Assembly: GCA_963805495.1 (NCBI GenBank) | Contig: CAWDUQ010000002.1 | Span: forward strand, 17,244-81,243 | Reading direction: 5' to 3' | DNA from: an uncultured Acidobacteriota bacterium | GTDB taxonomy: Bacteria; Acidobacteriota; Thermoanaerobaculia; UBA5066; Gp7-AA6 | DNA: 64,000 nt | Shown: positions 2,756-63,406 of the stretch, in pieces | Numbering within the stretch: the stretch's first letter is position 1 | Layout of the letters: the number at the start of each line of letters is the position of its first letter | Position numbers and translations under genes: made by a program | Notes under the pieces: model-generated | The model's input: only the letters and a program-made list of their open reading frames with translations | The model's database searches: none | What the model was told of the DNA's origin: nothing

Positions 2756-4435
2756 ATGCCGTCGAATGTGCCGCCCGCCTTCGCCTCCCTCGCGCTCGAC
2801 CCGCGCCTCCTCGCCGCGCTGACCGCCCTCGGCTACGAGGAGCCGACGCCCATCCAGCAGGAGGCGATCCCGCCGCTTCTCGAAGGCCGCGACGTGCTGG
2901 CGCAGGCGGCCACGGGGACGGGGAAGACGGCGGCGTTCGCGCTGCCGATCCTGCAGGCGATCGCGGCGGAACCGACGAAGGGCTCCGGCCCCGTCGCGCT
3001 GATCCTGGTTCCGACGCGGGAGCTGGCGATGCAGCTGGCGGAGGCGGTGCATCGGTACGGGAAGACGATCGGGGTGCGAGTCCTCCCGGTATACGGCGGC
3101 GCCTCGATGGACTCGCAGCTTCGGGCGCTGCACCGGGGGGTGGACGTGGTGGTGGCGACTCCCGGGCGGGCGCTCGATCACGTGAACCGGAAGTCGCTGA
3201 AGCTCGAGGGGGTCCGCACGCTCGTGCTCGACGAGGCGGACGAGATGCTGGACATGGGGTTCGCGGAGGACCTGGAGGCGATCCTGGCGGCGACGCCGTC
3301 GGAGCGGCAGACGGCGCTCTTCTCGGCGACGCTGCCGCCGCGGATCGTGTCGATCGCGGGCAAGCACATGAGGAATCCGCTGCGGATCGCGATCGCGCGG
3401 GAGGCGACGGCGGCGGGGAAGATGCCGAAGGTGCGGCAGACGGCCTACGTCGTCGCGCGGGGGCACAAGCGGGCGGCGCTGGGAAGGGTGCTCGACATCG
3501 AGTCGCCGACGGCGGCGCTGGTGTTCTGCCGGACGCGGCTGGAGGTGGACGATCTGACGGAGGCGATGAAGAGCCGGGGGCTGCGGGTCGAGTCGCTTCA
3601 CGGGGGGATCTCGCAGGCGGAGCGGGACCGGGTGATGAAGAAGCTCCGCGCCGGGACACTCGAGCTCGTCGTGGCGACGGACGTGGCGGCGCGGGGGCTC
3701 GACATCGGGCACCTGTCGCACGTCGTGAACTACGACGTCCCGTCGTCGCCGGACGTCTACGTCCACCGGATCGGCCGGACGGGGCGGGCGGGGCGCGAGG
3801 GGGTCGCGATCACGCTCGCCGAGCCGCGCGAGCACTGGATGTTGAAGAACATCGAGCGGGCGACGAAGCAGAAGATCGAGATCGGGAGCGTCCCGACGGT
3901 CGCGGACCTGCGGGCGAAACGGCTGGAGCTGACGAAGGCGTCGCTGCGGGAGGCGCTGCTCGCGGGCAAGTTCGACGGCTACCGCGTGGTCGTCGAGTCG
4001 CTGGCGGAGGAGTTCGATCCGCTCGATATCGCGGCCGCGGCGGTGAAGATGTCCGATGGGGGAGCGGGGGCGGTGCCGGACGACGAGCACGAGATCCCGG
4101 CCGTTGCCGCGCCGCCGGCGCCGAGAGGGCCGAGCGGGCCGCGAGGCGACGTGAAGGGCAAGAAGTGGTCGCCGCGGAAGGCGGCCGAGGGGAACACGCG
4201 CATCTTCATCGGCGCGGGACGGGGCGAGGGCGTGAAGCCGGCGGACCTCGTGGGCGCGATCGTGAAGGTCGCGAAGCTGTCGCCGCGGGACGTGGGCTCG
4301 ATCCAGATCTCGGAACGGTTCTCGCTCGTCGAGGTGCCGGAGGAGACGGCGGAGAAGGTCATCGGCGCGCTGCGGGCGACGGGGATCCGCGGGAACAAGG
4401 TGACGGTGCGGCGGGACAAGGAGCTGGGGCGCTGA
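2756..4435 (+). CDS. deaD: DEAD-box ATP-dependent RNA helicase (DeaD/CsdA-like) with a C-terminal DbpA-type RNA-binding domain
   Basis: Q motif PTPIQ, Walker A AQAATGTGKT, DEAD, SAT and HRIGRTGRAG are all present. The C-terminal ..RIFIGAGRGEGVKPADLVGAI.. resembles a DbpA/DeaD RBD. Confidence 0.95.
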   Translation: MPSNVPPAFASLALDPRLLAALTALGYEEPTPIQQEAIPPLLEGRDVLAQAATGTGKTAAFALPILQAIAAEPTKGSGPVALILVPTRELAMQLAEAVHRYGKTIGVRVLPVYGGASMDSQLRALHRGVDVVVATPGRALDHVNRKSLKLEGVRTLVLDEADEMLDMGFAEDLEAILAATPSERQTALFSATLPPRIVSIAGKHMRNPLRIAIAREATAAGKMPKVRQTAYVVARGHKRAALGRVLDIESPTAALVFCRTRLEVDDLTEAMKSRGLRVESLHGGISQAERDRVMKKLRAGTLELVVATDVAARGLDIGHLSHVVNYDVPSSPDVYVHRIGRTGRAGREGVAITLAEPREHWMLKNIERATKQKIEIGSVPTVADLRAKRLELTKASLREALLAGKFDGYRVVVESLAEEFDPLDIAAAAVKMSDGGAGAVPDDEHEIPAVAAPPAPRGPSGPRGDVKGKKWSPRKAAEGNTRIFIGAGRGEGVKPADLVGAIVKVAKLSPRDVGSIQISERFSLVEVPEETAEKVIGALRATGIRGNKVTVRRDKELGR

Positions 4436-4438
4436 GGC

Positions 4439-4463
4439 GGGCGGCCGCAAGGGCCGCCCCTAC
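4439..4463 (-). repeat. Family-2 REP unit (GTAG + 8-bp stem + 5-nt loop)
   Basis: The reverse complement reads GTAG GGGCGGCC CTTGC GGCCGCCC. It starts 4 nt after the deaD stop. Confidence 0.75.
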
Positions 4464-4483
4464 GACCCGGGGCCCCGGAGGCC

Positions 4484-4516
4484 GGAATCAGCGAAATCAG
4501 CAAACCAGGACTGACT
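4484..4516 (-). repeat. Degenerate family-1 element (GTCAG terminus plus tandem 8-9-nt words)
   Basis: GGAATCAGCGAAATCAGCAAACCAGGACTGAC. The reverse complement GTCAGTCCTGG.. resembles GGGGTCAGTCCTGACTTTCTGAC at 35669-35699, and the AATCAGC word is tandemly repeated. Confidence 0.4.
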
Positions 4517-4522
4517 GGTGAT

Positions 4523-5457: not shown

Positions 5458-5518
5458 GGGGTCCCTCCTGAAGATCTGATCTCGAGCGATGTCGAAAATA
5501 CCAAATCAGGACAGACCC
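5458..5518. repeat. Degenerate family-1 element pair
   Basis: Left unit: GGGGTCCCTCCTGAAGATCTGATCTCGAG. Right unit, reverse complement: GGGTCTGTCCTGATTTGGTATTTTCG. It is intergenic between the HTH gene and the ydjM-like gene. Confidence 0.4.
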
Positions 5519-7910: not shown

Positions 7911-7956
7911 CGTCTCGCCTCCGCCAGCGAGGGCGCGCTCGAGTGTATTTGAGAGA

Positions 7957-7981
7957 GGGCGGGGGCCAGCCCCGCCCCTAC
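7957..7981 (-). repeat. Family-2 REP unit
   Basis: The reverse complement reads GTAG GGGCGGGG CTGGC CCCCGCCC. It lies between two convergent gene ends. Confidence 0.75.
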
Positions 7982-8015
7982 GAACCGGAGCGTCGATGGG
8001 GGATTGGCGCAACGA

Positions 8016-9814: not shown

Positions 9815-9921
9815 GGGAGGGGGCAAGCCCCTCCCCTACGAATACCGGCTGCTCGAACCCGTTTCGCCTTCCGTCAGAATTTTCGGGCCCTCGTACGTAG
9901 GGGCGGCCCTTGTGGCCGCCC
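9815..9921. repeat. Inverted pair of family-2 REP units (REPIN/BIME-like)
   Basis: 9815-9839 reverse complement: GTAG GGGAGGGG CTTGC CCCCTCCC. 9897-9921: GTAG GGGCGGCC CTTGT GGCCGCCC. The spacer is 57 nt, in a divergent intergenic region. Confidence 0.8.
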
Positions 9922-9957
9922 GCTCCGCCCGTCGGCTACCATGTCGCGGTGGAAGCG

Positions 9958-12095: not shown

Positions 12096-12818
12096 ATGCG
12101 CCATCTGTCCGGGTCGATCTGCGTCCTGTCGATCGCCCTTGTCCCGGCCCTTTCGTCCACCCTGGCCGCGGCGCCGGCTCCGTCCTACGGCGTCGACCAG
12201 GTGTCGACGGCCGTCGTGACCGCCTGGGACGTCGAGCCGACCCTTCCCGGGATGTCCTGGAGCGCCACGAACCTCTATCGGTACCAGGTGAACGCGGGAG
12301 CGTTTCTGGCCGCCCTTCATCTGCCACAGGGGGCCCTGCTCATCTCGATCGAGCTCGAGGCCTGCGACACATCGGCGGCGGGAGAAGTTATCGGCGCGCT
12401 CTACCGGGGCACACTCGGCGCGGCCACGGGGGTCGTGAACGTCTCCACCGGAAACGCGGCCACGCCAGGATGCGTCACCCTCGCGGCCGACCTGCCGAGC
12501 CCCGAGACGGTCGAGAACAACGCCAATCGATACATCGTCGGCATGTCGAACTCGACGTTCGACGGCCTGACCTCGTTCGCCGCCATTCGCGTTCGCTACA
12601 GGCTCCAGGTCAGCCCGGCGCCGGCGAACGCGACCTTCAACGACGTGCCGACCTCGGACCCCGCGTACCAGTTCATCGAGGCGCTCGTCGCCTCGGGGGT
12701 CACGGCCGGATGCGGCGGAGGCAACTACTGCCCGAATGCTCCCTTGACGCGGCGGCAGATGGCGGTTTTTCTCTCCAAGGCGCTGGGCCTGCACTGGCCC
12801 GACGGGCCCGCATTCTGA
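12096..12818 (+). CDS. Secreted protein of unknown function with a C-terminal SLH-like module (paralog of 1870-2649)
   Basis: It has a signal peptide. Blocks shared with 1870-2649 are V.AWD, LP.GA.L.S....CD.S and Y(K/R)LQVSPAP..ATF.DVPTS.P.(F/Y)QF(V/I)EALV.SG(I/V)TAGCGGGN(F/Y)CP..PLTR.QMAVFL.K.LGL. Confidence 0.7.
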   Translation: MRHLSGSICVLSIALVPALSSTLAAAPAPSYGVDQVSTAVVTAWDVEPTLPGMSWSATNLYRYQVNAGAFLAALHLPQGALLISIELEACDTSAAGEVIGALYRGTLGAATGVVNVSTGNAATPGCVTLAADLPSPETVENNANRYIVGMSNSTFDGLTSFAAIRVRYRLQVSPAPANATFNDVPTSDPAYQFIEALVASGVTAGCGGGNYCPNAPLTRRQMAVFLSKALGLHWPDGPAF

Positions 12819-22773: not shown

Positions 22774-22885
22774 GTCGTCCTCCCCGGCCGCCTAGCCTAG
22801 CTGTGAGTTCTCGAGACGCTGTTTACCACGCCGGCTATCCCCTTCCCTTCCTGAAACGACTCCAGAAATGGCCGCGCCCCGGCAC

Positions 22886-22983
22886 GTAGGGGCGCCCCTT
22901 GCGGGCGCCCTCTCCTGTGCCGTTCGAGCGGCGGCACGCGAATCGTCAGCGCGTCGTCGGGCGGCCACGAGGGCCGCCCCTAC
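22886..22983. repeat. Convergent pair of family-2 REP units
   Basis: 22886-22910: GTAG GGGCGCCC CTTGC GGGCGCCC. 22959-22983 reverse complement: GTAG GGGCGGCC CTCGT GGCCGCCC. The pair lies inside a 427-nt divergent intergenic region. Confidence 0.8.
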
Positions 22984-23200
22984 AGCCAGGGTCCCACCGC
23001 GCCACGGTGCGTGAATAACCTGTTGAGAAACGACACCTCGCGCGGCGGGGAGGGCGGCCGGACGTGAACCTGCATTCGAAGGCGTCGGCGGTCGAGTTCC
23101 GTGGGAGCACGTCTCCGCGCGTTCCGCCGTCTGGACTCCCGCGCCGCGCGTGTGGTGTGATCGTCCCCTTCGATCCCTCGACACGACAACGGAGGTCCCG

Positions 23201-29731: not shown

Positions 29732-29761
29732 GAGGCGGGGGCAACCCCGCCTCTTTCTTTT
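29732..29761 (+). terminator. Rho-independent terminator
   Basis: GAGGCGGGG-GCAA-CCCCGCCTC followed by TTTCTTTT. Confidence 0.8.
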
Positions 29762-29910
29762 GGGGTCAGCCCTGAAAGTCTGAAAGTTGAGCGCCTCTCC
29801 ACGACCGGCGTTGCCGAACTCCCTGGCCGCGTGGCTCGATGCGGCCGATGACCCCTCAGTGTCAGACTTTCAGGTCCGGCCCCAAGTGTCATTCTTTCAG
29901 GGCTGACCCC
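29762..29910. repeat. Composite family-1 element (three units)
   Basis: 29762-29790: GGGGTCAGCCCTGAAAGTCTGAAAGTTGA. 29856-29883 reverse complement: GGGGCCGGACCTGAAAGTCTGACACTGA. 29884-29910 reverse complement: GGGGTCAGCCCTGAAAGAATGACACTT. An extra TGACCCC lies at 29849-29855. Confidence 0.8.
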
Positions 29911-32790: not shown

Positions 32791-34950
32791 CTACGGGCCG
32801 TACAGCCTGAGCCGGAACGTCTTGGCCAGAAATGGGGCCATCTGGCCGCGGGTGGTCGCGTTTCCGGGGCAGTAGTTCCCGCCGCCGCAGCCGGCGGCGA
32901 CGCCCCGGTTGGCCAGTTGCTCGATCCAGTCGGCGAAGAGGCTCGGACACGGAACGTCCGCGAAGGATCCGACGCACCCCGGAGGAACGTAGCCCGGGTC
33001 TTCGACCGTGCGCAGGAGGAAGACCGCCATCTGCTGCCGGAGGACCGGATCGTTCGGGCAGTAGTTCGGGCCGCCCGGGGCCGAGCAGCCGGCGACGATG
33101 CCGCGGTGGAACAGCTCCTCGATCCACGGCGCGAACGGGTCGGCCGCCGCGACGTCGTTGAACACCCCGGTGGCGGGCGGCGGAACGTAGGAGGGTCCGT
33201 TGCTCGCCTTGAGGACGAAGACGGCCATCTGCTTGCGCAGCGTGGAGGCGCCGGGGCAATACCCCCCGCATGCGCCGCCCGCGGTGATTCCGTTGTGGAA
33301 GATGTTTTCGACGAACGGATAGAAGATGTGGGACGTCGGCACGTCCGCGAAGCTCTCGCCGACGTGCAGGGTCCACGTCTTGGTGACTCCCGTGCCGAGC
33401 GCCTCGTCGAACGTCGCGTCCCAGTGCGGGGACGGGCGGGCGCCGGCAATCGAGAACTCGTAGCAGTTGGGACCGGCGTCGACGCAGCTCGCGTCCGACG
33501 CCGGAGGAATCGTTCCGTAGCCGGCGGCCGTGTCGCCGAGCGTGTACACCGGACCCACCGGCCCCTTGAAGTTGCCGGCGGTGCCCGACAACGGGAGACC
33601 GGATCCCGAGGAGTTCCTCCACGCCGGATCGACGGCCACGGTCTCGCCCGCTTCGAATATGCCGTTGACGTTGGAGGCGCCGCTCGAAGCGCGGCCGTCC
33701 ACGTTCATCGGCAGGGCTTCGGGGAAGCCGGCGCGACGGGCGAAGACCCCGAAGCTCGTCGGGCTGTCCTGCGCGATGCTCTGCCAGGCGGCCACGAACT
33801 GGCCGCTCGGGTCGACGGCGACCGCGGGCCGGCCCTGGTTGGCGTGGGACTCGACGTTCAAGCGAAACTCCGGCGCCGGGAGCGCGTCGGACGACGGGAA
33901 ACGCCGCGCCCACACCTCCGGGGCATCGGCGCTCGCTGGCGGCTCGGGACCCTGCCAGACCACGATCACGTCGCCCGCGGCGGAGACGACGGCCCTCGGC
34001 GAATCCTGGGACCCGGTCGTGTAGGTGTTGAGCGGAATCTCGTCGATGATCGGCGTCGAGCCGTCGAACCCGCGGCCGAAGACGCCGTTTCCGTCGCCGT
34101 CCTGCGGGCTCTGCCACGCGACGGCAAACGAGGTGGAGCTGAGCACGGCCACGCTCGGCGCCAGCTGCGCGCCGGTCGTGTAGGCATTGACCGGGATCTC
34201 GGACGACAGGGGGTTCCCGCCGGCGTCGAATCGCCTGGCGAAGATTCCCTCCATGTCGCCGTCCTGGCCGGGGCTTTCCCAGGCCACGACGAACTCGCCG
34301 GAGGAAGCCATCGCGACGTCGGGGTGCGTCTGATTTCCGGTCGTGTACGTGTTGACCACGAAGTCGTTGCCCTGCGGCGTCCCGGCGGAGTCGAAGCGCC
34401 GGGCGACGATCGCGAACCCGTTCGCATCCTGCGAGAAGCTCTGCCAGACGACGACGAAGTTGCCCGAGCCGTCCATCGCGACCCGGGGCGAGTCCTGGTT
34501 GCTCGTCGTGAACGAGTTGACCGGGAACTCGCCTCCCGCGGGCGCCCCGGCCGCGTCGAATCGCCGGCCGAAGACCCCGGTCCCGGAACCGTCCTCGCCG
34601 GTCTCCTGCTGCCAGACGACGACGAAGCCGCCGGCCGGAGCGCAGGCGACCGAGGCCGCGCTCTTCGTCCCGGACGTGTAGGTGTTGACCGGGAGCTCGG
34701 CCGTCAGCGCAGCGCCGGCCGGGTCGAAGAGGCGGGCGAAAACGCCGCGCGTCCCGTTGTCCTGCCCGACGCTGTCCCAGGCGACGACGAAGTTTCCGGA
34801 ATCCGCGGAGGAGACCGACGGATACGCCTGGTGGCCGGTCGTGTAGGTGTTGACCTGGAACTCCGGGCCGAGCGCCGGCACCTGGCCGAGGAGCGCGGAG
34901 CCGAGGAGGGCCTGTGTCAGCGCCAGGAGCGCGGAATACCGAAAACGCAT
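32791..34950 (-). CDS. Secreted protein with seven propeller-like repeats of 47-57 aa, a middle domain and three SLH-like modules
   Basis: The start MRFRYSALLAL.. at 34950 is preferred; the ORF opens at 35016. There are 7 units of (F/I/L)(P/Q/V/R)(V/L)N(T/S/A)(Y/F)T(T/S).Q..P.VA....G.FVV.W.S..QDG...G(V/I)F.RRFD..G.P...E spanning nt 33727-34860. There are 3 modules of F.DVP...F..(I/V)E.(L/I)...G(I/V).AGC.....(N/Y)(Y)CP......R.QMA.F(L/V) spanning nt 32794-33351. Confidence 0.8.
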   Translation of the reverse strand: MRFRYSALLALTQALLGSALLGQVPALGPEFQVNTYTTGHQAYPSVSSADSGNFVVAWDSVGQDNGTRGVFARLFDPAGAALTAELPVNTYTSGTKSAASVACAPAGGFVVVWQQETGEDGSGTGVFGRRFDAAGAPAGGEFPVNSFTTSNQDSPRVAMDGSGNFVVVWQSFSQDANGFAIVARRFDSAGTPQGNDFVVNTYTTGNQTHPDVAMASSGEFVVAWESPGQDGDMEGIFARRFDAGGNPLSSEIPVNAYTTGAQLAPSVAVLSSTSFAVAWQSPQDGDGNGVFGRGFDGSTPIIDEIPLNTYTTGSQDSPRAVVSAAGDVIVVWQGPEPPASADAPEVWARRFPSSDALPAPEFRLNVESHANQGRPAVAVDPSGQFVAAWQSIAQDSPTSFGVFARRAGFPEALPMNVDGRASSGASNVNGIFEAGETVAVDPAWRNSSGSGLPLSGTAGNFKGPVGPVYTLGDTAAGYGTIPPASDASCVDAGPNCYEFSIAGARPSPHWDATFDEALGTGVTKTWTLHVGESFADVPTSHIFYPFVENIFHNGITAGGACGGYCPGASTLRKQMAVFVLKASNGPSYVPPPATGVFNDVAAADPFAPWIEELFHRGIVAGCSAPGGPNYCPNDPVLRQQMAVFLLRTVEDPGYVPPGCVGSFADVPCPSLFADWIEQLANRGVAAGCGGGNYCPGNATTRGQMAPFLAKTFRLRLYGP

Positions 34951-35125
34951 GGCCGGACGAGTGTATCGTCGATCGACGGAGTCGTCCACGCAGAGATTCC
35001 GGCGGGCTTCGAGCACGCCGCACGGTGGCCCCGGCCGGAGGAGGAGCGTACCTGGACAGGTCTTCCGCCCGAGGGGGGGAGCGCGGCATGGTTAGTCCGG
35101 GGAGGCATCGCTGCAAATCGGTCGC

Positions 35126-35668: not shown

Positions 35669-35699
35669 CTCAGAAAGTCAGAAAGTCAGGACTGACCCC
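35669..35699 (-). repeat. Family-1 single unit
   Basis: The reverse complement reads GGGGTCAG TC CTGACTTT CTGACTTT CTGAG. It lies between the blc stop and the response-regulator 3' end and contains the regulator's actual stop codon. Confidence 0.8.
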
Positions 35700-36391
35700 G
35701 CTAGCCGGTGAAGCGGTAGCCGAGTGCGGTGGACCGTGCGGATGTGCTCGGGGTGCGAGGGATTCGTCTCGATCTTCTGCCGGAGCGAGGCGATGTGGAC
35801 GTCGACGGTCCGGGTCGTGGGCGTCGAGTCGTAGCCCCAGACTTTGTCGAGGAGCTCGTCGCGCGAGAGCAGGGCCCCGCGGTTCTGCACGAAATGTTTC
35901 AGGAGCTTGTACTCCAGGGCCGAGAGCTCGATCGGCTCGCCCGAGCGGAAGACCTGGGCCGCGCGGAAGTCGATGCGGACGTCGCCGAAGGAGTAGCCGT
36001 CACCCGTGATCCCGGGGGCCGGGCGTCGGCGCCGGAGCAGCGCCTCGATGCGGGCGAGAAGCTCGATCATCTCGAACGGCTTGGCGAGGTAGTCGTCGGC
36101 GCCGAGCTTCAAGCCCACGACGCGATCGGTGACGTCGCCGCGCGCGGTGAGCATGAGAACCGGCACGTCGCTGCCTCCCTGGCGCAGCTCCCGGCACACG
36201 TCGAAACCGTTCTTTCCGGGCAGCGCGACGTCGAGCAGCAGCACGTCGAACGCCCGGGCCCTTGCGGTCGCGAGCGCCGACACGCCGTCTCCGGCGGTCG
36301 TCACGTCGTAGCCTTCGGCCGCGAGGCGATCGGTGAGCGTGACGACGAGGCTCGGCTCGTCCTCGACCAGCAGAACGCGCGGCAGCTTCAT
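35678..36391 (-). CDS. OmpR/PhoB-family response regulator; the last 10 codons or so look frameshifted
   Basis: Receiver motifs are LLVEDE, LLLDVALPG and DDYLAKPF. The winged-helix part is ..LSALEYKLLKHF..TRTVDVHIASLRQKI... The expected end ..IRTVH..LGYRFTG* is in another frame (TAG at 35701-35703). The encoded tail RTRLPLHRLAGSVLTF runs into the repeat. Confidence 0.9.
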   Translation of the reverse strand: MKLPRVLLVEDEPSLVVTLTDRLAAEGYDVTTAGDGVSALATARARAFDVLLLDVALPGKNGFDVCRELRQGGSDVPVLMLTARGDVTDRVVGLKLGADDYLAKPFEMIELLARIEALLRRRRPAPGITGDGYSFGDVRIDFRAAQVFRSGEPIELSALEYKLLKHFVQNRGALLSRDELLDKVWGYDSTPTTRTVDVHIASLRQKIETNPSHPEHIRTVHRTRLPLHRLAGSVLTF

Positions 36392-43485: not shown

Positions 43486-44732
43486 CCGCGGTGGACCTCG
43501 TGGCGCACGTGGCGGCTTTCGCTGGCGCTCTTCGGGAGCGCGGGGTCCGCGCGGGCCTCTCGGACGAGGCTGACGCCGTGGCCGCCCTGACGCTCGTCGA
43601 CCTCGCGGACCGCGAGGAGGTGCGCCTGGCGCTGCGGACGGCGCTGAAAATCCGCGCGCGCGACGCCGGGGTCTTCGAGGAGCTCTTCGCGCGCCTCTGG
43701 AGCAGCGCGGGCCGGCCGGCGCGCGAGCGCGCGGCCCGGGCCCGGTCGAGTCGGCGGGATGCGCCGCAGAAAAACTTCGGCGGCCTGCCGGCGTCGGCGG
43801 CCCGGGAAGTCGACCGGGAGGTGCGCGACGGGTCGGACCGAACGCCCGGCTACAGCCCCGAAGCGATGCTTCGCCGCAAGCCTTTCGACGAATGCTCCGA
43901 GCGGGACCTCGCCGCGATGGAGCGGCTGATGTCGCGCCTCGCCCTCTCGCTTGCGACGCGCCGCAGCCGGCGGCTCGTCCCGACCCGGGGCCGCGGCCGC
44001 GTCGATCCGCGCCGCAGCTTCCGGAAGGCCGTCGGGACGGCCGGCGAGCCGCTGCGCTTGGCGCGGCGGGAGCGGGCGATCGAGGAGCCGCGCCTGGTCG
44101 TCCTCTGCGACACCAGCGGCTCGATGGACCGCCACGTGCGGTTCCTGCTTTCCTTCCTGCTGTCGCTCAAGAAAGCCGCGCGCCGCACCGAGCTCTTCGC
44201 GTTCAACACCTCCCTCGTGAGGCTGACGCCCTGGATCTCGCCGGCGAAGATCGCGGCCACACTCGAGCGCCTCGCCGCCGGCGTTCCGGGCTGGTCCGGC
44301 GGCACCCAGATCGGCCGCAGCCTCGGCGCCTTCGTCGAGCGATACCTGGACGAGCTCGTCGATGCGAGGACGGTGGTCGTGATCGTCAGCGACGGTCTCG
44401 ACCGCGGGGACACGGCGGAGCTCGCGGCGGCGATGCGGGCGATCCGAGCCCGGGCGCGCAGGATCGTCTGGCTCAATCCGCTGCTCGGCGACGCGCGGTA
44501 CGAGCCGACCGCGCGGGGAATGGCGGCCGCCCTGCCGCACGTCGACGTCTTCGCGTCGGCGCACAACCTGGAAGCGCTCGAGAGGCTCGTTCCGCGGCTG
44601 TCGGCCGCCAGGGGTCAGCGTCTCGGATTTTTCGGATCCGAACCGGCTAGATCATTGGACGAGTCAGCCCTCGGATCCGAAAAATCGAGACCTGACCCCG
44701 TCGTTTTTCGCCTTCGAAAGGAGAGGTCATGA
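43482..44732 (+). CDS. coxE: VWA-domain protein (CoxE-type) with a repeat-encoded C-terminal extension
   Basis: [14 protein letters not shown] and ..[16 protein letters not shown].. are present. The homology-like sequence ends near ..[11 protein letters not shown]. The final 40 codons or so are read through the family-1 hairpin at 44611-44699. ATGA overlaps occur at both ends. Confidence 0.85.
44611..44699. repeat. Family-1 variant inverted pair (89-nt hairpin)
   Basis: Left arm: GGGGTCAGCGTCTCGGATTTTTCGGATCCGAA. Right arm, reverse complement: GGGGTCAGGTCTCGATTTTTCGGATCCGAGGG. It lies between the CoxE-like body and the coxM start. Confidence 0.8.
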
Positions 44733-48466: not shown

Positions 48467-48519
48467 GGGGTCAGCCCTGAAAGAATGACACTTGGGGCCT
48501 GACCTGAACATCTGACGTT
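48467..48519 (+). repeat. Family-1 tandem doublet
   Basis: GGGGTCAGCCCTGAAAGAATGACACTT followed by GGGGCCTGACCTGAACATCTGACGTT. The first 27 nt are identical to the reverse complement of 29884-29910. The doublet starts 3 nt after the coxL TAG. Confidence 0.85.
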
Positions 48520-48533
48520 TATGGAGGGCCGGC

Positions 48534-49490: not shown

Positions 49491-50344
49491 TCATGAGAAC
49501 AATTCGCTTTCAGGATGACCGTGGGGCGCGTAATCTGGCGGCCGTGGGGGAGCGGCTGAAGACCGAGACGATCGACCGGGACGCCGTTCTCTTCCGCGGG
49601 GAGAAATACGACTCGGGGGCGCTGGCGCTCCTCGACGGAGGCCGGGCGCTTCTCGTGGACGGGCTCGGCTCGGCCGAAGACGCCGCACAGCTGAAGTCCG
49701 TCCTCGTCGGCGAGATGGGCCGGCGCGTGGAGCTTCTGGTCAGCACCCACTACTTCAGCGACCACATGGCCGCCTGGAGGACGTTTCCGGAGGCGCCGGT
49801 CGTCGCCCATGAAAACTCCGTCGCCACGTTCTGGACGGAGAAGTTCCGCTCGCCGGAAGAGGCGGCCCACTTCCGTTCTCCGACGTACCGGCTCGCCGGG
49901 CGGCTCGGCCTGACCTGGGGACGGTTCAACCTCGAGCTCTTCGAGAACCCCGGCCACACGGCGGGCACGCTCAACGTCGACATTCCCGAGCTCGACCTGC
50001 TGCACGTCGGGGACACGGCCGTGGGACGGATGGCGTACATCCACTATTCGGCGCCGGAGGCGGTCGACCGGGCGCTCGCGCGGGCGCTCGGCCGGGGCCG
50101 GGGGCGCGTCCTGCGCTCGCACGGCCCGCTCACGGATGACGGGGCGCTCCGCTCGGCGCGCGGATATCTCGCGAACCTGCGGGCCCGTGTGCTCGAAGCG
50201 CGCGCGGCGGGGCGGCCGGTCGAAGAGATCCGGATCGAGGAGTGCCTGCCGGCCGGTCCGCCGGCCACGGACTTCGAGACGCTCTTCCACCGGCGCAACC
50301 TCGCTTCGATCGAGGTGCGCGGGCTCTACGCGGTGGCCGCGTGA
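49484..50344 (+). CDS. MBL-fold metallo-hydrolase
   Basis: STHYFSDH (an HxHxDH variant) and NPGHTAGT are present. The start is uncertain (49484, 49493 or further downstream) because it lies only 11 nt from the divergent LysR start. Confidence 0.7.
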
Positions 50345-50688
50345 TCGTCGTCCTGTTCCGGTCGCGGCTGACCGACGAGGCCGGTGAAGAATACGCGGCG
50401 ATGGACCAGATGCTCGCCGAGAAGGCGCGGAACGCCCCCGGTTTCGTCGACGTCAAGAGCTTCACCGCGTCCGACGGCGAGCGCCTGACGATCGTCTGGT
50501 GGAAGGATCTCGAGACGCTCCGTCAGTGGCGGGAGGATCCCGCCCACCGCGTCGCGCAGGAGAAAGGCCGGCGGCTCTGGTATCGGTACTACGACATGGA
50601 GGTGGCCGAGGTCGTCCGCGAGAGTCACTTCGCGCGGCAAAGTTCAGACTTTCAGGTCAGGCCCCAGGTTACAGACTTGCAGGGCTGA
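50341..50688 (+). CDS. ABM (antibiotic biosynthesis monooxygenase)-domain protein with a repeat-encoded tail
   Basis: The GTG start overlaps the upstream stop (GTGA). [10 protein letters not shown]...FVDVKSF..DGERLTIVWWKDLETLRQWREDPAH is an ABM pattern. The last 16 codons or so and the TGA (50686-50688) lie inside the family-1 doublet. Confidence 0.75.
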   Translation: MIVVLFRSRLTDEAGEEYAAMDQMLAEKARNAPGFVDVKSFTASDGERLTIVWWKDLETLRQWREDPAHRVAQEKGRRLWYRYYDMEVAEVVRESHFARQSSDFQVRPQVTDLQG

Positions 50689-50692
50689 CCCC
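50639..50692 (-). repeat. Family-1 tandem doublet (reverse orientation)
   Basis: The reverse complement reads GGGGTCAGCCCTGCAAGTCTGTAACCT followed by GGGGCCTGACCTGAAAGTCTGAACTT. Confidence 0.85.
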
Positions 50693-52725: not shown

Positions 52726-55700
52726 GCCCGTCTCGTCCCTTCATCCTCCGGCCGGTCGCCACGTCTCTCCTGATGGCCGGCCTGCTGCTCGCGGGGGTCG
52801 TGGCCTACCGCCAGCTTCCCGTCTCGGCGCTCCCGCAGGTCGACTACCCGACGATCCAGGTCGTGACCTTCTATCCGGGCGCGGGCCCCGAGGTCATGGC
52901 CTCCTCCGTCACGGCCCCGCTCGAACGCCAGTTCGGCCAGGTCCCGGGCCTGAACCAGATGACGTCGACCTCCGCCGACGGCGCCTCGGTCATCACGCTG
53001 CAGTTCGCGCTCGACCTCGACATCGACATCGCCGAGCAGCAGGTGCAGGCCGCGATCAACTCGGCCGGGTCCTTCCTGCCGCGGGACCTTCCCAATCCTC
53101 CCGTTTACAGCAAGGTCAACCCGGCCGATGCCCCGATCCTGACGCTCGCGCTGACCTCCGAGACGCTGCCGCTGTCGAGGGTCCACGACCTCGCCGATAC
53201 GCGCCTGGCGCAGAAGATGGCGCAGCTGCCGGGGGTGGGCCTCGTGTCGCTCTCGGGCGGCCAGAAGCCCGCCGTGCGCATCCGCGCCAATCCCACGGCG
53301 CTCTCCTCCTACGGCCTCACGCTCGAGGACGTGCGGACCGTGATCGCCGCTTCCAACGTCAACCAGGCCAAGGGCAGTTTCGACGGCCCGAACCACGCGT
53401 ACACGATCGGCGCCAACGACCAGCTTCTTTCGAGCTCCGACTACCGGCCCCTCGTCATCGCGTACCGCAACGGCGCGCCGGTGCGGCTCGAGGACGTCGC
53501 CGACGTCGTCGACGCGACGGAGAACATCCGCCAGGCCGCCTGGATGGACCGCGTCCCGGCGGTCATCCTGAACATCCAGCGGCAGCCGGGGGCGAACATC
53601 ATCTCGGTCGCCGACCGCGTCAAGGCCCTCCTCCCGCAGCTTCAGGCGTCGCTGCCCTCGGCCGTGAAGGTCACGATGCTGACCGACCGGACGACGACGA
53701 TCCGCGCCTCGGTGCGCGACGTGCAGCTCGAGCTGATGCTCACGATCGCGCTCGTCGTCATGGTCATCTTCCTCTTCCTGCGCAACCTCGCCGCGACCCT
53801 GATCCCGAGCGTGGCCGTGCCCCTTTCCCTCGTCGGCACGTTCGCCGCGATGTACCTGCTGGGCTACAGCCTCAACAACCTGACGCTGATGGCGCTGACG
53901 ATCGCGACCGGCTTCGTCGTCGACGACGCGATCGTCATGATCGAGAACATCGTGCGCTACGTCGAGGACGGCATGAAACCGCTGGAGGCCGCGCTCAAGG
54001 GCGCCGAGCAGATCGGTTTCACGATCATGTCGTTGACGGTCTCGCTGATCGCCGTGCTGATCCCGCTCCTCTTCATGGGCGACGTCGTGGGCCGCCTCTT
54101 CCGCGAGTTCGCGGTGACGCTCTCGGTGACGATCCTCGTTTCGGCGGCGGTCTCGCTGACGTTGACGCCGATGATGTGCGCGAAGATCCTGCGCCACCGG
54201 CCGGCGTCGCAACAGTCGCGCTTCGAGCGGTCGGCCGAGCGGGCCTTCGTCCGCGTGCAGGGGTTCTACCGGCGGACCCTCGAGAAGGTCCTCGAGCACC
54301 AGCCGGCGACCCTGGCCGTGGCCGTCGGCACGCTCGTCCTGACGGTCGCCCTCTACGTCTTCATCCCCAAGGGCTTCTTCCCGGTCCAGGACACGGGCGT
54401 CATCCTCGGGATTTCGGAAGCCGAGCAGTCGGTGTCCTTCGCGACGATGGCCGAGCGCCAGCAGGCCCTGGCGCGCGTGATCCTGGCCGACCCGGCCGTC
54501 GCGAGCCTGTCGTCGTTCATCGGGATCGACGGCACGAACGCGACGTTGAACAGCGGGCGGATCCAGATCAATCTCAAGCCGCTCGCCGACCGTGAATTGC
54601 GGGCGAGCGCGCTCATCCGCCGCCTCCAGCCGAAGCTGGCGTCGGTGCCGGGGATCACCCTCTACATGCAGCCGGCCCAGGAGCTGACGGTCGAGGACCG
54701 CGTCAGCCGGACGCAATACCAGTACAGTCTCGAGCACCCGGACGCGGCGGTCCTCGACGAGTGGGTTCCGAAGCTGATGGAGCGGCTGAGGAAGCTGCCG
54801 CAGCTGGCCGACGTCGCGAACGACCAGCAGAACCGGGGCCTTCGGGTGACGCTCGCTCTCGACCGGGCGACGATGTCGCGCCTGGGGCTGACGCCGCTGT
54901 CGGTCGACGACGCGCTCTACAACGCTTTCGGCCAGCGCCAGATCTCGACCATGTTCACCCAGCTCAATCAGTACCGGGTGGTCCTCGAGGCCGATCCCGT
55001 CTTCCAGCGGACCCCCGAGGACCTCGCCCACGTCTACGTCCGCAGCTCATCCGGGGCGGTCGTGCCGCTCTCGGCGTTCAGCCGCATCGAGTCGTCGCGC
55101 GCACCCCTCGCGATCAACCACCAGGGTCAGTTCCCGGTCGTGACGATCTCCTTCAACCTCGCGCCCGGAGTCTCGCTCGGGGAGGCGGTGCGGGCGATCG
55201 AGCGGGCGAAGGCGGAGCTCGGCCTGCCTCCCGGCGTCCAGGCCGGGTTTCAGGGCACGGCGCGTGCCTTCCGCGCCTCGCTCGTCAACACGCCCCTCCT
55301 GATCCTCGCGGCGATCGTGACGGTCTACATCCTGCTCGGCGTCCTCTACGAGAGCTACATCCACCCGGTGACGATCCTCTCGACGCTGCCCTCGGCGGGA
55401 GTCGGCGCGCTCCTGTCCCTGATGATCTGCCGGATGGACTTCAACGTGATCGCGTTGATCGGGATCATCCTGCTGATCGGCATCGTCGAGAAGAACGCGA
55501 TCATGATGATCGACTTCGCCCTCGACGCCGAGCGCAAGGAAGGCAAACCCCCGCGCGAAGCGATCTTCCAGGCGTGCCTTCTGCGGCTGCGGCCGATCCT
55601 CATGACGACGTTTGCGGCGCTTCTCGCGGGCGTGCCCCTGGCGGTCGGGGGCGGAACGGGCGCCGAACTGCGGCGGCCGCTCGGCGTCGCGATCGTCGGC

Positions 55701-55844
55701 GGTCTCATCTTTTCGCAGGTCCTGACGCTCTACACGACCCCCGTCATCTACCTCGCGTTCGACCGGCTCGCGCGCCGCGTGGCGCGCCGGGGCGCTCGCG
55801 GCCGGGTCCGTGCGCCGGCGCCGGCGGCGACGGAGGGCCGGTGA
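52722..55844 (+). CDS. mdtB: RND multidrug efflux permease (MdtB-like)
   Basis: The TTG start overlaps the mdtA stop. [24 protein letters not shown].. is followed by AcrB-type architecture over 1040 aa. Confidence 0.93.
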
Positions 55845-58800
55845 GCGTTTCGGAGGCCTTCATCCGGCGCCCCGTCGGCACGACGCTCCTGACGATCGCC
55901 GTGGCGCTCGCCGGCGGCGTGGCGTACTTCTTCCTCCCGGTCGCGCCCCTTCCGCAGGTCGAGTTCCCGACGATCCACGTCTCGGCGAGCCTGCCGGGGG
56001 CGAGCCCGGAGACGATGGCCTCGTCGGTCGCGACACCGCTCGAGCGCCAGTTCGGGCGGATCGCCGGGATCAACGAGATGACGTCCTCGAGCTCGCTCGG
56101 CGAGACGGACGTCTCGCTCCAGTTCGACCTCGGCCGAAACGTCGACGCCGCGGCGCGCGACGTGCAGGCCGCCATCAACGCCGCGCGCGGGCAGTTGCCC
56201 GCAAGTCTTCCGTCGAACCCCCGCTTTCACAAGGTCAATCCGGCGGACGCGCCCATCCTGCTCCTCGCGCTCGCCTCGGACGTCGTGGAGAAGGGCGTCA
56301 TCTACGACGTCGCCTCCTCGATCCTGCAGCAGAAGATCTCGCAGGTCGAGGGCGTGGGCCGCGTGTTCGTGGGCGGTGGGGCCCTGCCCGCGGTCCGCGT
56401 CGACGTCAATCCCACGGCCCTGAACAGCGCCGGGCTCTCGCTCGAGGACGTGCGCGGCTTCCTGGGCTCCGCCAACGCCAACCGGCCCAAGGGCCAGCTC
56501 GGGGCCGGAGCGCGCGCGTGGGCGATCGGCGCGACCGACCAGCTCCGCTCGGCCGCCGATTACCGGCCGCTCGTCCTGTCCTACCGCGACGGCGGCGCGC
56601 TTCGCCTTTCGGACGTCGCGACGGTCCTCGACTCGGTCGAGGACGTGCGGACGAGCGGCGTCGCCAACGGAAAGCCGGCCGTCATCATCATCATCTTCCG
56701 TCAGCCCGGAGCGAACATCATCGCGACGGTCGACCGGATCAAGGCGCTCCTGCCGCAGCTGCAGCAGGACCTTCCGCCGACGATCCAGCTCGCCGGGGTG
56801 ATCGACCGCTCGACCACCATCCGCGCCTCCGTGCGGGACGTCCAGGTGACGCTCGGGATCTCGATCGCCCTCGTCATCCTGGTCGTCTTCGTCTTCCTGC
56901 GGAGCCTCCGCGCGACGCTCATCCCGAGCGTCGTCGTGCCCGTGTCGCTCGTCGGGACCTTCGGGGCGATGTACTTCCTGGGCTACAGCATCGACAACCT
57001 GTCGCTGATGGCCCTGACGATCGCCACCGGCTTCGTGGTCGACGACGCCATCGTCGTGATCGAGAACATCACGCGGCACCTCGAATCGGGGGCGTCGCCG
57101 TTGGAGGCCGCGCGCCGGGGCGCCCGCGAGATCGCCTTCACGGTCTTCACGATCAGCATCTCCCTCGTGGCGGTCTTCATCCCGATCCTCCTGATGGGAG
57201 GCATCGTCGGGAGGTTGTTCCGGGAGTTCGCCGTAACCCTCTCGGTCGCGATCCTCATCTCCATGGTCATCTCCCTGACGACGACGCCGATGATGTGCGC
57301 GATGCTGCTCCGCCGGCCGGCCGAGGAAAAGGCGGGCCGGTTCTTCCGGGCGAGCGAGCGGACCGTGGAATGGCTGCGCTCGCTGTACCGGCGGTCCCTC
57401 GCGTCGGTCCTGCGGCACCAGCCCCTGACCCTCGCGGTCACGCTCGCGACGATGGCGGCGACGGTCTTCCTGTACGTCCTCATCCCCAAGGGCTTCTTTC
57501 CGCAGCAGGACACGGGCCGGCTGGCGGGGTCGATCCAGGCCGACCAGAACTCCTCCTTCCAGGCGATGGACCGCCGGGTCGCGCGGTTCGTCGACATCGT
57601 CATGCAGGACCCCGGCGTCGACTACGTGCAGGCCTATGCCGGCGGCGATTCGCCCAACACCGGCCGGATGTTCGTGAACCTCAAGCCCGTCGGCGCGCGC
57701 GACGCTTCGGCCGACGAGATCATCGCAAGGCTGCGGCCGAAGCTCGCGCAGGTGCCGGGGGCTTCGCTCTATCTCCAGTCGGTCCAGGACCTGCGCATCG
57801 GCGGCCGGGCGAGCGCCTCGCAGTTTCAGTACACCCTGCGCAGCGACGACGTCCGGGACCTGCAGGAATGGGCGCCCCGCGTTCTCGCGCGCCTGCGCCG
57901 GATCCCGAGCATCGCCGACGTCAACAGCGACCAGCAGGTCCGGGGCCTCGAGGCCTCCCTGACCGTCGACCGTGCGACGGCCTCCCGTCTCGGCATCACG
58001 CCCCGGGCGATCGACAACACGCTCTACGACGCCTTCGGGCAGCGTCCGGTCTCGACGATCTACACCGCGCTCAACCAGTACCACGTGATCCTGGGGCTCG
58101 AGCCGAGGTACCAGCAGGGCCCCGAGGCCCTCGAGGCCGTGCGCGTGCGATCCAACGACGGCTCGCTCGTTCCGCTGGCGGCGTTCGCGCGCTACGAGCC
58201 GTCCACGGCGCCGCTGGAGGTCAACCACCAGGGGCTCTTCCCCGCGGTCACGATCTCGTTCGCCCTCGCGCCGGGCCGGGCGCTCGGCGACGCGGTCGAG
58301 GACATCCAGCGGGCCACGGCCGAGGCCGGCCTGCCGGCCTCGATCCGAGGCAGTTTCCAGGGCACGGCACAGGCGTTCCAGGCCTCGCTCGCCAACCAGC
58401 CGTGGCTGATCCTCTTCGCGCTTCTGACGGTCTACATCGTGCTCGGGATCCTCTACGAGAGCTTCATCCACCCGATCACGATCCTTTCGACGCTCCCCTC
58501 GGCCGGAGTCGGCGCCCTGCTCGCCCTTCTCCTTTTCCGGACCGAGCTCTCGGTCATCGCGCTGATCGGGATCATTCTCCTGATCGGCATCGTCAAGAAG
58601 AACGCCATCCTCATGATCGACTTCGCCATCGAGGCCGAGCGGCGGGAGGGCAAGAGCCCGGACGAGGCGATCTTCGAGGCCTGCATGCTCCGCTTCCGTC
58701 CGATCACGATGACGACGATGGCGGCGTTGCTCGGCGGGCTTCCCCTGGCGATCGGACTCGGCACCGGGGGAGAGCTGCGGCGGCCGCTCGGCATCGCGAT

Positions 58801-58945: not shown

Positions 58946-60036
58946 AGCGTCGTTTCCGGATCCCGGCCGTGTTTCTCGGCGCGGCCCTCGCGGCCGCGGC
59001 GTCGGCCCAGACGATGTCGATCGAGGAGTACGAGCCGAAGTCGACGCTCGTCGTTCCCGAGCACCACCCGTCGAAGGCGAAGTATCCGTTCATCGACGTT
59101 CACAACCACCAGGACCGGGACATCTCGGCCGAGGAGGCCCGCCAGCTCGTCGCCGACATGGACCGGATCGGCATGCGGGTCATGGTGAATCTCTCGGGAT
59201 CGCAGGGGGCCGAGCTCGTGAAGGGGCTCGCGAATCTCGCCGGTCGGTATCCCGGGCGGTTCGTGGTCTTCGCCAACCTCGACTTCAAGGGCATCTCGGA
59301 GCCGGGCTGGGGAGAGCGGGCGGCCGCGCAGCTCGCGCGCGACTACGCCGCCGGGGCCCGGGGCCTCAAGATCTTCAAGAACCTCGGGATGACGGTGATG
59401 GACGGCTCGGGCAAGCGCGTCCCGGTCGACGACCCGCGCATCGACCCGGTGTGGGACAAAGCGGGGGAGCTCGGCATCCCCGTCCTCATCCACACCGCCG
59501 AGCCGCACTCCTTCTTCGAGCCCCAGGACAAGTACAACGAGCGCTGGCTGGAGCTCAAGCAGTTCCCGCAGCGCGCGCGACCGCCGGAGAAGTTTCCGCC
59601 GTTCGAGCAGCTCATGACCGAGCAGCATCACATGTTCGAGAAACATCCGAAGACGAAGTACATCGACGCGCACCTCGGCTGGCTCGGCGGGGATCTCGGG
59701 CGGCTCGGCAAGCTCTTCGACCGCCTGCCGAACGTCTACACCGAGATCGGCGCCGTGCTGGCCGAGCTCGGCCGCCAGCCCCGCTTCGCGCACGACTGGT
59801 TCGTGAAGTACCAGGACCGCGTGCTCTTCGGGAAGGACTCCTGGGCGGCCGACGAGTACCTCGTCTACTTCCGCGTGCTCGAGACCGACGACGAGTACTT
59901 CGACTACTACCGGAAACGGCACGCCTTCTGGAAGATGTACGGCCTCGCGCTGCCGGACGAAGTCCTGAAGAAGATCTACTACAAAAACGCGCTCAGGATC
60001 GTGCCGGGGATCGACCCGTCGGGGTTTCCCCCGTAG
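58942..60036 (+). CDS. Secreted amidohydrolase-2 (TIM-barrel metal-dependent hydrolase) family protein
   Basis: An ATGA overlap links it to the mdtC stop. It has a signal peptide, and ..FIDVHNHQ.. and ..VLIHTAEP.. motifs are present. Confidence 0.75.
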   Translation: MKRRFRIPAVFLGAALAAAASAQTMSIEEYEPKSTLVVPEHHPSKAKYPFIDVHNHQDRDISAEEARQLVADMDRIGMRVMVNLSGSQGAELVKGLANLAGRYPGRFVVFANLDFKGISEPGWGERAAAQLARDYAAGARGLKIFKNLGMTVMDGSGKRVPVDDPRIDPVWDKAGELGIPVLIHTAEPHSFFEPQDKYNERWLELKQFPQRARPPEKFPPFEQLMTEQHHMFEKHPKTKYIDAHLGWLGGDLGRLGKLFDRLPNVYTEIGAVLAELGRQPRFAHDWFVKYQDRVLFGKDSWAADEYLVYFRVLETDDEYFDYYRKRHAFWKMYGLALPDEVLKKIYYKNALRIVPGIDPSGFPP

Positions 60037-61092: not shown

Positions 61093-61664
61093 ACGACGGC
61101 TTCCTCCGCCACCGGCGCTGGCGTCGCGGCGATCTCGAGCGCCACGGCGGCCGCGTGGATGGTCGCCGCGATCCGGATGGCGTCGTGGACCTGGTCCTCG
61201 GAGAGGTGCCCGTCGACGACGACCTTCTCGTGGGCGCGGACGCAGGCCTCGCAGCCGTTGATCGCGGAGGCCGCGAGCGAGAAGAGCTCGAAGTCGACCT
61301 TGCTCGTCGCGGGCTTGCCGAGGCGGTTCATGCGCAGGCGCGCCGGCTTCTCCGAGTACACGGGCTTGCCGACGACGTGCCGGAACCGGTAGTAGACGTT
61401 GTTCATCCCCATCAGGGCCGCCGCCGCGAGGGCGTCCTCGACCGCCGGCTCGCCGACGGCGCGCCGGGCGTCCGAGAGGACGGCCTCGAGCAGGCCGGGG
61501 TGCCGCGCCGCGGCCGCCGAAGCGACCGCGACGCCCCAGCGCTGCTCGGGGGAGAGGCTCCCCTCGGCGAGCACGGTCTGGAGGTTCAGCTTGACGTCCC
61601 GGGCGAGGTCCGGGAGGGCCTCCCGGACCGCCTCGAGGCCGTCGTAGGAACGCGCGGCCGTCAT
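61089..61664 (-). CDS. ahpD: Alkyl hydroperoxide reductase AhpD (carboxymuconolactone decarboxylase family)
   Basis: ..LFSLAASAINGCEACVRAHE.. is the CxxC motif. An ATGA overlap links it to the ahpC stop. Confidence 0.9.
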   Translation of the reverse strand: MTAARSYDGLEAVREALPDLARDVKLNLQTVLAEGSLSPEQRWGVAVASAAAARHPGLLEAVLSDARRAVGEPAVEDALAAAALMGMNNVYYRFRHVVGKPVYSEKPARLRMNRLGKPATSKVDFELFSLAASAINGCEACVRAHEKVVVDGHLSEDQVHDAIRIAATIHAAAVALEIAATPAPVAEEAVV

Positions 61665-62200: not shown

Positions 62201-62281
62201 GGTGTGAGAACTCCTTGGGATCCAAACGGGCGCGGCGCCTACCGCCGCCCCGGAATTGAAGGATGCCCCGGGGACGCACTC

Positions 62282-63278: not shown

Positions 63279-63376
63279 GGGCGGCCACAAGGGCCGCCCC
63301 TACGCTGTGGCCCGGAATTGGCCGTCCCCCCGGGAGGAACGGGCTCGGGTCGTAGGGGCGGGGCTTGTCCCCGCCC
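63279..63376. repeat. Inverted pair of family-2 REP units
   Basis: 63279-63303 reverse complement: GTAG GGGCGGCC CTTGT GGCCGCCC. 63352-63376: GTAG GGGCGGGG CTTGT CCCCGCCC. The pair lies between convergent gene ends. Confidence 0.8.
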
Positions 63377-63406
63377 TCCGCGAACTCGGCTTCGAGGCTA
63401 GTTCCC

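Follow-up and report, generated by a model that had tools for sequence, protein, structure and literature searches.

Repeat units and a transposase cassette in an acidobacterial contig

The DNA analysed here, called the window throughout, is a 64-kb stretch (64,000 nucleotides) of contig CAWDUQ010000002.1 from an uncultured acidobacterium. Its G+C content is about 70% (69.8%), and the named relatives of its genes belong to metagenome-assembled genomes (MAGs) of the Acidobacteriota/Thermoanaerobaculia. Two of its features are the subject of this report: a gene at 60040-61002 (-) for a Y1/HUH tyrosine transposase with a C-terminus resembling domain IV of DnaA, enclosed by terminal inverted repeats (TIRs), and a family of short repeats dispersed at gene ends, referred to as family-1. 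We suggest that the dispersed units are most plausibly detached copies of the TIRs of such cassettes, which have been named TIRYTs or TIRtrons.

A family-1 unit is about 27 nt long. Its head, GGGGTCAG or in more general form GGGG(T/C)C(A/N)G, is followed by NCCT and then, in most units, by a short tandem sub-repeat of 7-9 nt that recurs at 8-nt intervals. The sub-repeat pair is GAAAGTCT and GAAAGT in family-1 proper, GACTTTCT and GACTTTCT in a T-type variant, and GTATTCCT and GTATTC at the ends of the transposase cassette. Family-1 is found as single units, as tandem doublets and as inverted pairs.

The element at 29762-29910 is an inverted pair of 149 nt. Its left arm is a single unit at 29762-29788 (+), GGGGTCAGCCCTGAAAGTCTGAAAGTT, with a GGGGTCAG head and GAAAGTCT and GAAAGT in tandem, which scores 21.2 bits (E = 1.5e-05) on a profile built from other genomes (see below). 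The right arm is a tandem doublet at 29857-29910 (-), with its outer unit at 29884-29910 and its inner unit at 29857-29883, reading in reverse complement GGGGTCAGCCCTGAAAGAATGACACTT and then GGGGCCGGACCTGAAAGTCTGACACTG (19.8 and 11.2 bits). The 69-nt spacer between the arms ends in an orphan GATGACCCC; this lone head (29849-29855, -; TGACCCC, or GGGGTCA on the minus strand) adjoins the doublet and is too short for a test of its own. A clean intrinsic terminator (29732-29753) with its T-run directly precedes the element, which ends 18 nt ahead of the start of a short-chain dehydrogenase gene.

A solo T-type unit, GGGGTCAGTCCTGACTTTCTGACTTTCTGAG, lies at 35669-35699 (-) between convergent genes for a lipocalin and an OmpR-type response regulator; it consists of GGGGTCAGTCCT, two copies of GACTTTCT and GAG, and its 23.3 bits make it the best match to the profile. 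Thirty nucleotides upstream of a gene for a CO-dehydrogenase flavoprotein is an 89-nt inverted pair, 44611(+)/44699(-), which resembles miniature inverted-repeat transposable elements (MITEs) or REPINs, the paired form of repetitive extragenic palindromes (REPs); it represents a third subfamily (GGGGTCAG-GTCTCGAnnnTTCGGATC). A tandem doublet at 48467-48520 (+) begins 2 nt past the stop of a xanthine-dehydrogenase-like gene, in the convergent gap with a LysR gene, and a second one, at 50639-50692 (-), occupies the 3' end of the open reading frame (ORF) of an ABM monooxygenase. The units at 29910(-) and 48467(+) share one sequence, GGGGTCAGCCCTGAAAGAATGACACTT, and those at 29883(-), 48494(+) and 50665(-) have heads of the form GGGGCC(G/T)GACCTGAA..., while the other unit of the ABM doublet, at 50692 (-), begins GGGGTCAGCCCTGCAAG... 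and is within the noise on the other-genome profile.

The original prediction had listed these loci, had placed them at gene ends and outside coding cores, and had described the 29.8-kb locus as three units and an orphan TGACCCC stacked behind a terminator, all of which holds. All unit loci fall between genes or at the 3' ends of genes, and several heads directly abut a stop codon. The nuance to be added is that three ORFs run into the repeat and draw their last codons and stop from it, namely those of the response regulator, the ABM protein and the transposase. The response-regulator gene (35678-36391) takes its final 7 codons and its stop from the unit (tail AGSVLTF*), and the ABM ORF (50242-50688) reads through both units of its doublet to a TGA in the head (50686-50688; tail ...SSDFQVRPQVTDLQG*). 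Because the head contains TCA/TGA, a unit inserted at the end of a gene can replace the original stop.

The transposase and its cassette

The transposase matches the Pfam family Y1_Tnp at 3e-13, and the HUH histidines H60 and H62 and the catalytic-type tyrosine Y119 (in RYIHLNP) are present in it and invariant in an alignment of 16 family members. Taken alone, the protein gives a weak match to the DnaA C-terminus (TIGR00362, E 0.0028); Bac_DnaA_C (PF08299) is matched by 9 of the 16 members, and positions 210-313 of the family profile match structures of DnaA domain IV, 3pvp at 4.7e-10. Homologues number thousands, and many of them are annotated with both PF01797 and PF08299; an exact-sequence look-up of the window protein gave no record. 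Membership of IS200/IS605 was considered and rejected. The cassette shares with that family, which includes IS608 and ISDra2, the HUH/Y1 catalytic domain and the lack of an evident target-site duplication, but the NCBIfam IS200 model NF033573 gives 21.6 bits against a cut-off of 55, and the cassette ends in TIRs without hairpins, unlike the asymmetric sub-terminal hairpins without TIRs of that family.

The two TIRs of the cassette, 25/26 identical, read in inverted orientation GGGGTCAA(T/C)CGTGTATTCCTGTATTC. The 3' TIR (GGGGTCAATCGTGTATTCCTGTATTC, 60036-60061, +) encodes the ...NTGIHD* tail of the transposase and holds its stop codon, and its first G doubles as the G of the TAG stop of an amidohydrolase gene; the 5' TIR (GGGGTCAACCGTGTATTCCTGTATTC, 61063-61088, -) abuts the stop (61089-61091) of a gene with an AhpD/CMD domain. 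The cassette (60036-61088, 1053 bp) exactly fills the gap between the stops of these two convergent genes. Its junctions leave no spare base, with TAG running into GGGTCAA... at 60034-60039 and ...TTGACCCC into TTA at 61086-61091. With a G+C content of 64.9% the cassette stays below the 69.8% of the window, and at third codon positions it reaches 0.79, where three nearby host genes have 0.90-0.93; for the CMD-side ORF (61089-62279) the value falls to 0.70.

The cassette has a TCGCGACAA box (61030-61045, -) in the stretch that separates the 5' TIR from the start codon. A conserved TCGCGACAA(Y)T box 25-45 nt upstream of the start is found in acidobacterial TIRYTs of the window and of L001, L002, L010, L028, L053, L057, L059, L097 and L123-L126 (about 200 related loci were gathered in total, and those named singly carry an L number), and is a candidate promoter or operator. 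Low-GC relatives have TTGACA in the 5' TIR or abutting it.

Occurrence beyond chance and folding of the units

The degenerate octamer GGGGYCNG, on which the original prediction had leaned, is not enriched in the window (45 observed against 59.7 expected) and was therefore dropped as evidence, and the enrichment of GGGGTCAG by itself is weak (8 observed, 3.1 expected). It is the extended unit that carries the case, as a search for similarity beyond the octamer bears out: the 17-mer GGGGTCAGCCCTGAAAG, with up to three mismatches, has 6 matches in the window against 0.11 expected, a number that no shuffle reached. An nhmmer profile of 161 units, all taken from other genomes, recovered 7 full-length units with scores of 11.2-23.3 bits from the window, compared with 9.9 bits for the best match in 20 shuffles of the window.

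Two further loci fall below this level. A degenerate T-type unit at 4484-4518 (-), with head CCAGTCAG and body GTCCTGGTTTGCTGATTTCG, scores 5.2 bits, below the profile noise; this 4515(-) unit matches the bodies of T-type TIRs of L035 and L059 at 23/24 positions. At 5458-5518, between an HTH_3 gene and a YdjM gene, both arms of a degenerate inverted pair score within the shuffle noise (8.1 and 6.6 bits), and its architecture and position fit a pair that we regard as probable only. The GGGGTCAG at 2597, inside a shared coding stretch (see below), is a chance match and not a unit.

As the original prediction had anticipated, the units are not classical hairpins. Folded as single-stranded DNA, single family-1 units show no excess of structure over shuffles (z from -0.5 to 0.15), the transposase's own TIRs do no better (z = 0.08 and 2.1), and doublets fold weakly (z from -1.3 to -2.6). 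Strong hairpins arise from the inverted pairs only, with z = -5.9 for the 149-nt element at 29.8 kb and z = -7.2 for 44611-44699. Since neither the single unit nor the TIR has structure beyond that of shuffles, a model in which each unit is a hairpin REP is rejected.

Units at the ends of transposase genes in other genomes

The same design bounds transposase genes in many lineages. Homologues 82% and 69% identical to the window protein are bounded on either side by GTATTCCT-type repeats, and the one at the 3' end again encodes the conserved ...NTGIHD* tail. In a metagenomic set of 70 usable TIRYT loci, found through the protein at 31-62% identity, a head was sought within 250 nt of the gene and was present on the 5' side in 67, on the 3' side in 60 and on both sides in 57, against a background of 0.17 per 250 nt. 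A scan of one genome per species with the pattern GGGGTCAGNCCTGANNNNNTGA found at least 117 stretches, concentrated, among the matches listed, in Acidobacteriota/Thermoanaerobaculia MAGs; the motif is also multi-copy in MAGs of Chlamydiae, Gammaproteobacteria, Rokubacteria and Verrucomicrobia, often, again among the matches listed, as perfect inverted pairs. About 11 of these stretches, which were found by DNA motif only, hold a transposase homologue directly beside or between the matches.

The bodies of the TIRs are specific to clades of the transposase, and this refines a point on which the original prediction was right. It had proposed that the dispersed units share their terminus with the inverted repeats of the window's transposase. 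The design is indeed the same, but the body of the window TIR (GGGGTCAA-yCGT-GTATTCCT-GTATTC) differs from that of family-1, and the window's doublets are near-identical to the TIRs of a sister clade, P0052/P0062/P0068, whose proteins are 54-56% identical to the window protein. Family-1 doublets flank the genes of that clade on both sides, and the tails of its proteins (...SDFQVRPQSSDLQG*) are the translation of the doublet. The doublet at 48467-48520 equals one complete solo TIR of a P0062-type cassette. The inner 5' unit of the TIRYT cassette at L125, GGGGTCAGCCCTGAAAGAATGACACTT, is identical over 27/27 positions to the units at 48467(+) and 29910(-), the latter being the outer unit 29884-29910 of the 29.8-kb element, and the initial 24 nt of the unit at 29762(+) match the L125 TIRs at 100% and 96%. 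Detached forms occur elsewhere as well: a detached inverted pair of the window's GTATTCCT type lies in the relative L001, 7 kb from the cassette, and the subfamily of 44611-44699 is found at other loci in L208 and L125.

The sub-repeats within the TIRs co-vary. In 27 of 122 distinct units from other genomes, the three free bases behind the first TGA motif are repeated behind the second, whereas a null with shuffled partners gives 4.1 +/- 1.9. An exact direct run of at least 5 nt with a period of 6-9 is found in 38% of 127 transposase-adjacent TIRs, against 8% of shuffles and 8.7% of random genomic 36-mers; for runs of at least 6 the figures are 20% of the 127 TIRs against 2.3%.

Two loci depart from the usual layout of the ends. 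At one TIRYT locus seen in four soil metagenome samples (L002 9850-9945, L003 6150-6215, L004 and L005 4860-4955), 2 or 3 extra truncated heads, CGGTTGGGGTCAATCGTGT..., stand in tandem upstream of the full 5' TIR; their number varies by sample, which we read as population-level length variation at the end of the cassette. At L151 the TIRYT is flanked by a near-perfect inverted duplication of 118 nt (117/118; about 2000-2115 and 3060-3180), which covers the TIR plus some 95 nt outside it and is far longer than at any other locus.

Turnover at orthologous sites

Three genomes (L207, L208 and L209) are syntenic with the window over 44-51 kb, with LysR proteins 89, 87 and 79% identical to that of the window. 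The convergent gap between LysR and the xanthine-dehydrogenase-like gene, which holds the family-1 doublet in the window, is empty in L207 (8 nt) and contains a small terminator only in L209; in L208 it is occupied by an inverted pair of GTCTCG type together with an orphan CTGACCCC at the position of the window's head. At the 3' end of the ABM gene the number of units is 2 in the window, 3 in L207, 4 in L208 and 2 in L209. The site upstream of the CO-dehydrogenase flavoprotein gene carries different elements in each genome, L208 and L209 both differing from the window. Positions that are empty in one genome, differently occupied in another or filled with arrays of 2-4 units indicate that the elements turn over.

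The site of the cassette itself is also variable. At the 3' end of the L209 orthologue of the amidohydrolase gene (89% identical) there is no TIRtron, and a pair of REPs of the GTAG type, described below, comes after the stop. There, at L209 7090-7150, the orthologous TAG stop is directly followed by the GGGG of the GTAG-type REP. The TIRtron and the GTAG-type REP thus have the start TAG/GGG in common, perhaps through a target preference of both, perhaps by chance.

A probable origin as detached TIRs

The cassette belongs to a known but little-studied class. Genes resembling those of REP-associated tyrosine transposases (RAYTs) and bounded by TIRs were described in 2013 and named TIRYTs or TIRtrons (Di Nocera, De Gregorio & Rocco, 2013, BMC Genomics 14:522, PMC3733652), so that the window offers a new example and not a new kind of system. 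According to the available text of that paper, the TIRs share GGGGWSAS, the acidobacterial group is sharply defined, TIR families are dispersed as singles, dimers and groups, and some genomes have several TIRYTs, whose TIRs can differ, with repeat families for only some of them. Quentin et al. (2018, PMC6006769), in the sections available, describe TnpA_REP subclass 2.1, probably the TIRYTs, as having a domain like Bac_DnaA_C and no REPs found, and leave the role of the domain open because the head is unlike a DnaA box. The window system agrees with these accounts, as far as the two texts go, in its RAYT-like Y1 transposase, in having TIRs in place of REP hairpins with the 3' TIR overlapping the gene end, in the C-terminal Bac_DnaA_C/HTH region (subgroup 2.1.2), in the GGGGWSAS-type head with the acidobacterial group as the best defined, and in dispersed TIR copies (singles, dimers and groups) whose families do not always match a resident gene. 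It deviates in that the head of the window's own gene, GGGGTCAA, matches GGGGWSAS at 7/8 positions, with the last base outside the consensus. The available portions of the two papers make no mention of co-varying tandem sub-repeats of 7-9 nt within the TIR, of TIRs that are doublets of 27-nt units, of host ORFs that borrow their C-terminus and stop, or of empty and replaced orthologous sites. In the literature searched, the terms TIRYT and TIRtron appeared in these two papers only, neither of which gives a mechanism in the parts available, and searches with 14-mers of the unit returned no matching paper.

We consider that the family-1 units are probably detached copies of the TIRs of TIRYT-type cassettes, and put the probability of this at roughly 0.85. 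A TIRtron comprises a single gene between inverted TIRs, for a RAYT-like Y1/HUH transposase fused to a helix-turn-helix like DnaA domain IV; each TIR starts with GGGGTCA(G/A), often followed by the tandem sub-repeat, and the 3' TIR overlaps the last codons and the stop. The detached copies would be non-autonomous elements akin to MITEs or REPINs, spread in trans by the cognate TIRYT through HUH-type strand cleavage at the conserved head, and the variable sub-repeats would set the specificity of each clade, probably as binding sites of the C-terminal DnaA-like domain. With MITEs they have in common short non-coding inverted-repeat forms (29762-29910, 44611-44699), but they have no visible target-site duplication and the parent transposase is Y1/HUH and not DDE; with REP arrays of the type called bacterial interspersed mosaic elements they share tandem arrays whose unit number varies among relatives, as at the ABM 3' site. 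It is unlikely that the window's own TIRYT, whose TIR is of the GTATTCCT type, mobilises the GAAAG-type doublets.

Several points weigh against this origin, or temper the observations on which it rests. The evidence is comparative throughout, and copies within one genome are not independent observations. Only second repeats with a TGA could match the scan pattern, which makes its counts lower bounds, and the sub-repeats are frequent without being universal, as the 38% figure for exact runs of at least 5 shows. Neither a target-site duplication nor a conserved target motif was found in the pre-head bases of about 170 copies or at the window junctions; the flanks of 29762-29910 and 44611-44699 have no visible direct duplication, and the empty site of L207 is too diverged to define junctions. 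No transposase-gene remnant was found in the 69-nt spacer of the 29.8-kb element by six-frame translation or by blastn-short against four TIRtrons, in which parts of TIRs were the only match; with no apparent similarity to TIRtron interiors, the origin of this spacer is unexplained. Finally, protein database records contain no TIRYT of the P0062 clade on the 1.76-Mb source contig, so that the doublets may be orphaned, served from another contig, or cross-mobilised through the shared head.

The alternative that survives best is that the solo units are decay remnants of full autonomous TIRtrons whose gene was deleted while one TIR or both stayed behind, with no mobilisation of short elements in trans. 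The orphan heads in the window (29849-29855) and in L208 are what such decay could leave, L059 has a 5' TIR and a TCGCGACAA box with no gene after it, and the lack of a recorded cognate gene on the source contig fits as well. Decay does not readily account, however, for compact perfect inverted pairs of 60-90 nt that recur in several phyla, for arrays of 2-4 units that differ between close relatives, or for a spacer, in the element at 29.8 kb, that is free of any transposase trace, and to arrive at 5-7 loci within 64 kb, full insertions would have had to occur independently many times, each with a precise deletion after it. We regard it as unlikely.

The original prediction had proposed a REP/RAYT system, or REPtron, and this was right in kind, since the window has a RAYT-like Y1 gene and its homologues are flanked by the units; the precise class is the TIRtron and not the hairpin REPtron. 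In a classical REP/RAYT or REPIN system (Nunvar 2010; Bertels & Rainey 2011, PMC3116915; E. coli TnpA_REP structure, PMC3479197), a group 2/3 RAYT recognises hairpin REPs in the form of single-stranded stem-loops. As there, inverted copies of a dispersed short extragenic repeat lie on either side of the window's Y1 transposase, which is of a usually single-copy, domesticated-looking type, and further copies sit at gene ends singly, as inverted doublets or in clusters; homologues are called RayT in some source databases, and the gene scores 75.9 bits on the NCBIfam model REP_Tyr_transpos (NF047646). That score is nevertheless under the model's curated cut-off of 80. Classical REPs are imperfect palindromes of 20-40 nt with a GTAG tag, whereas family-1 units are non-palindromic, have direct sub-repeats and bear neither a GTAG nor a CGTC tag, and a separate family of GTAG-tagged hairpins, distinct from family-1, exists in the window. 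The extra DnaA-like domain of the window protein, which classical RAYTs lack, places it in subclass 2.1, in which REPs were not found according to the available text of PMC6006769. Contradicted by the folding of single units and transposase TIRs (z from -0.5 to +2.1), a classical REP/RAYT system is rejected as very improbable.

Least probable of all is that the units are immobile host sites (operator arrays, terminators or mRNA-stability elements) whose likeness to transposase ends is secondary. Their position at gene ends, the strong hairpins of the inverted pairs (which could terminate transcription or stabilise transcripts), the resemblance of tandem sub-repeats to protein-binding sites and the TTGACA box in or next to the 5' TIR of low-GC relatives would suit such a role. 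Yet this unit also stands at the ends of transposase genes in Acidobacteriota, Chlamydiae, Gammaproteobacteria, Rokubacteria, Verrucomicrobia and others, the orthologous sites are vacant or taken by other subfamilies, units lie on both the 5' and the 3' sides of unrelated genes, and an Rfam scan of the window at the gathering threshold returned no match.

A tentative model of end recognition

It is conceivable, though on balance doubtful, that the TIRYTs have exchanged the recognition of hairpins for that of double-stranded DNA, with the DnaA-like C-terminus binding the tandem sub-repeats of 7-9 bp as DnaA binds arrays of its boxes. The C-terminus, seated on the sub-repeats, would then bring the catalytic domain onto the invariant GGGGTCAG head, and the sequence of the sub-repeats would set which repeat family each paralogue can move. 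As the 5' TIR overlaps the promoter region, binding there would also autoregulate the gene.

Other repeats in the window

A second and unrelated family is built like a classical REP, with a GTAG tag and a G+C-rich hairpin (GTAGGGGCGGCCCTTGYGGCCGCCC), and is present as singles and inverted pairs at gene ends (4439-4473, 7955-7992, 9885-9923, 22875-22921, 22959-22993, 63279-63313 and 63341-63379, as well as L209 7090-7150); no cognate RAYT of this family was found in the window. At 4439-4518 one of its repeats adjoins the degenerate family-1 unit described above. The remaining repeats are coding. The ORF at 32791-35091 (-) contains seven tandem repeats of about 165 nt (55 aa) at 33767-34863, 61-70% identical, and specifies an unrelated repeat-domain protein. 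Two adjacent paralogous genes for RND (ACR_tran-type) transporters at 52738-58458 are 70-75% identical over about 3.1 kb, and the tandem pair is also present in L208. The coding stretches at 2423-2639, 12577-12793 and 32810-33075 are 73-75% similar, in direct and inverted orientation, and probably encode a shared protein domain.

Implications

The sub-repeats provide a concrete candidate site for the DnaA-like domain whose role Quentin et al. (2018) left open, next to a GGGGTCAG head that is nearly universal in this transposase family, whatever the phylum. The detached copies turn over at orthologous sites and can give host genes new C-terminal tails and stops. Together the findings amount to a testable model of how an HUH transposase may find its ends without hairpin substrates, and they describe a class of repeats that would be expected to escape palindrome-based REP and REPIN finders in Acidobacteriota and other soil lineages.

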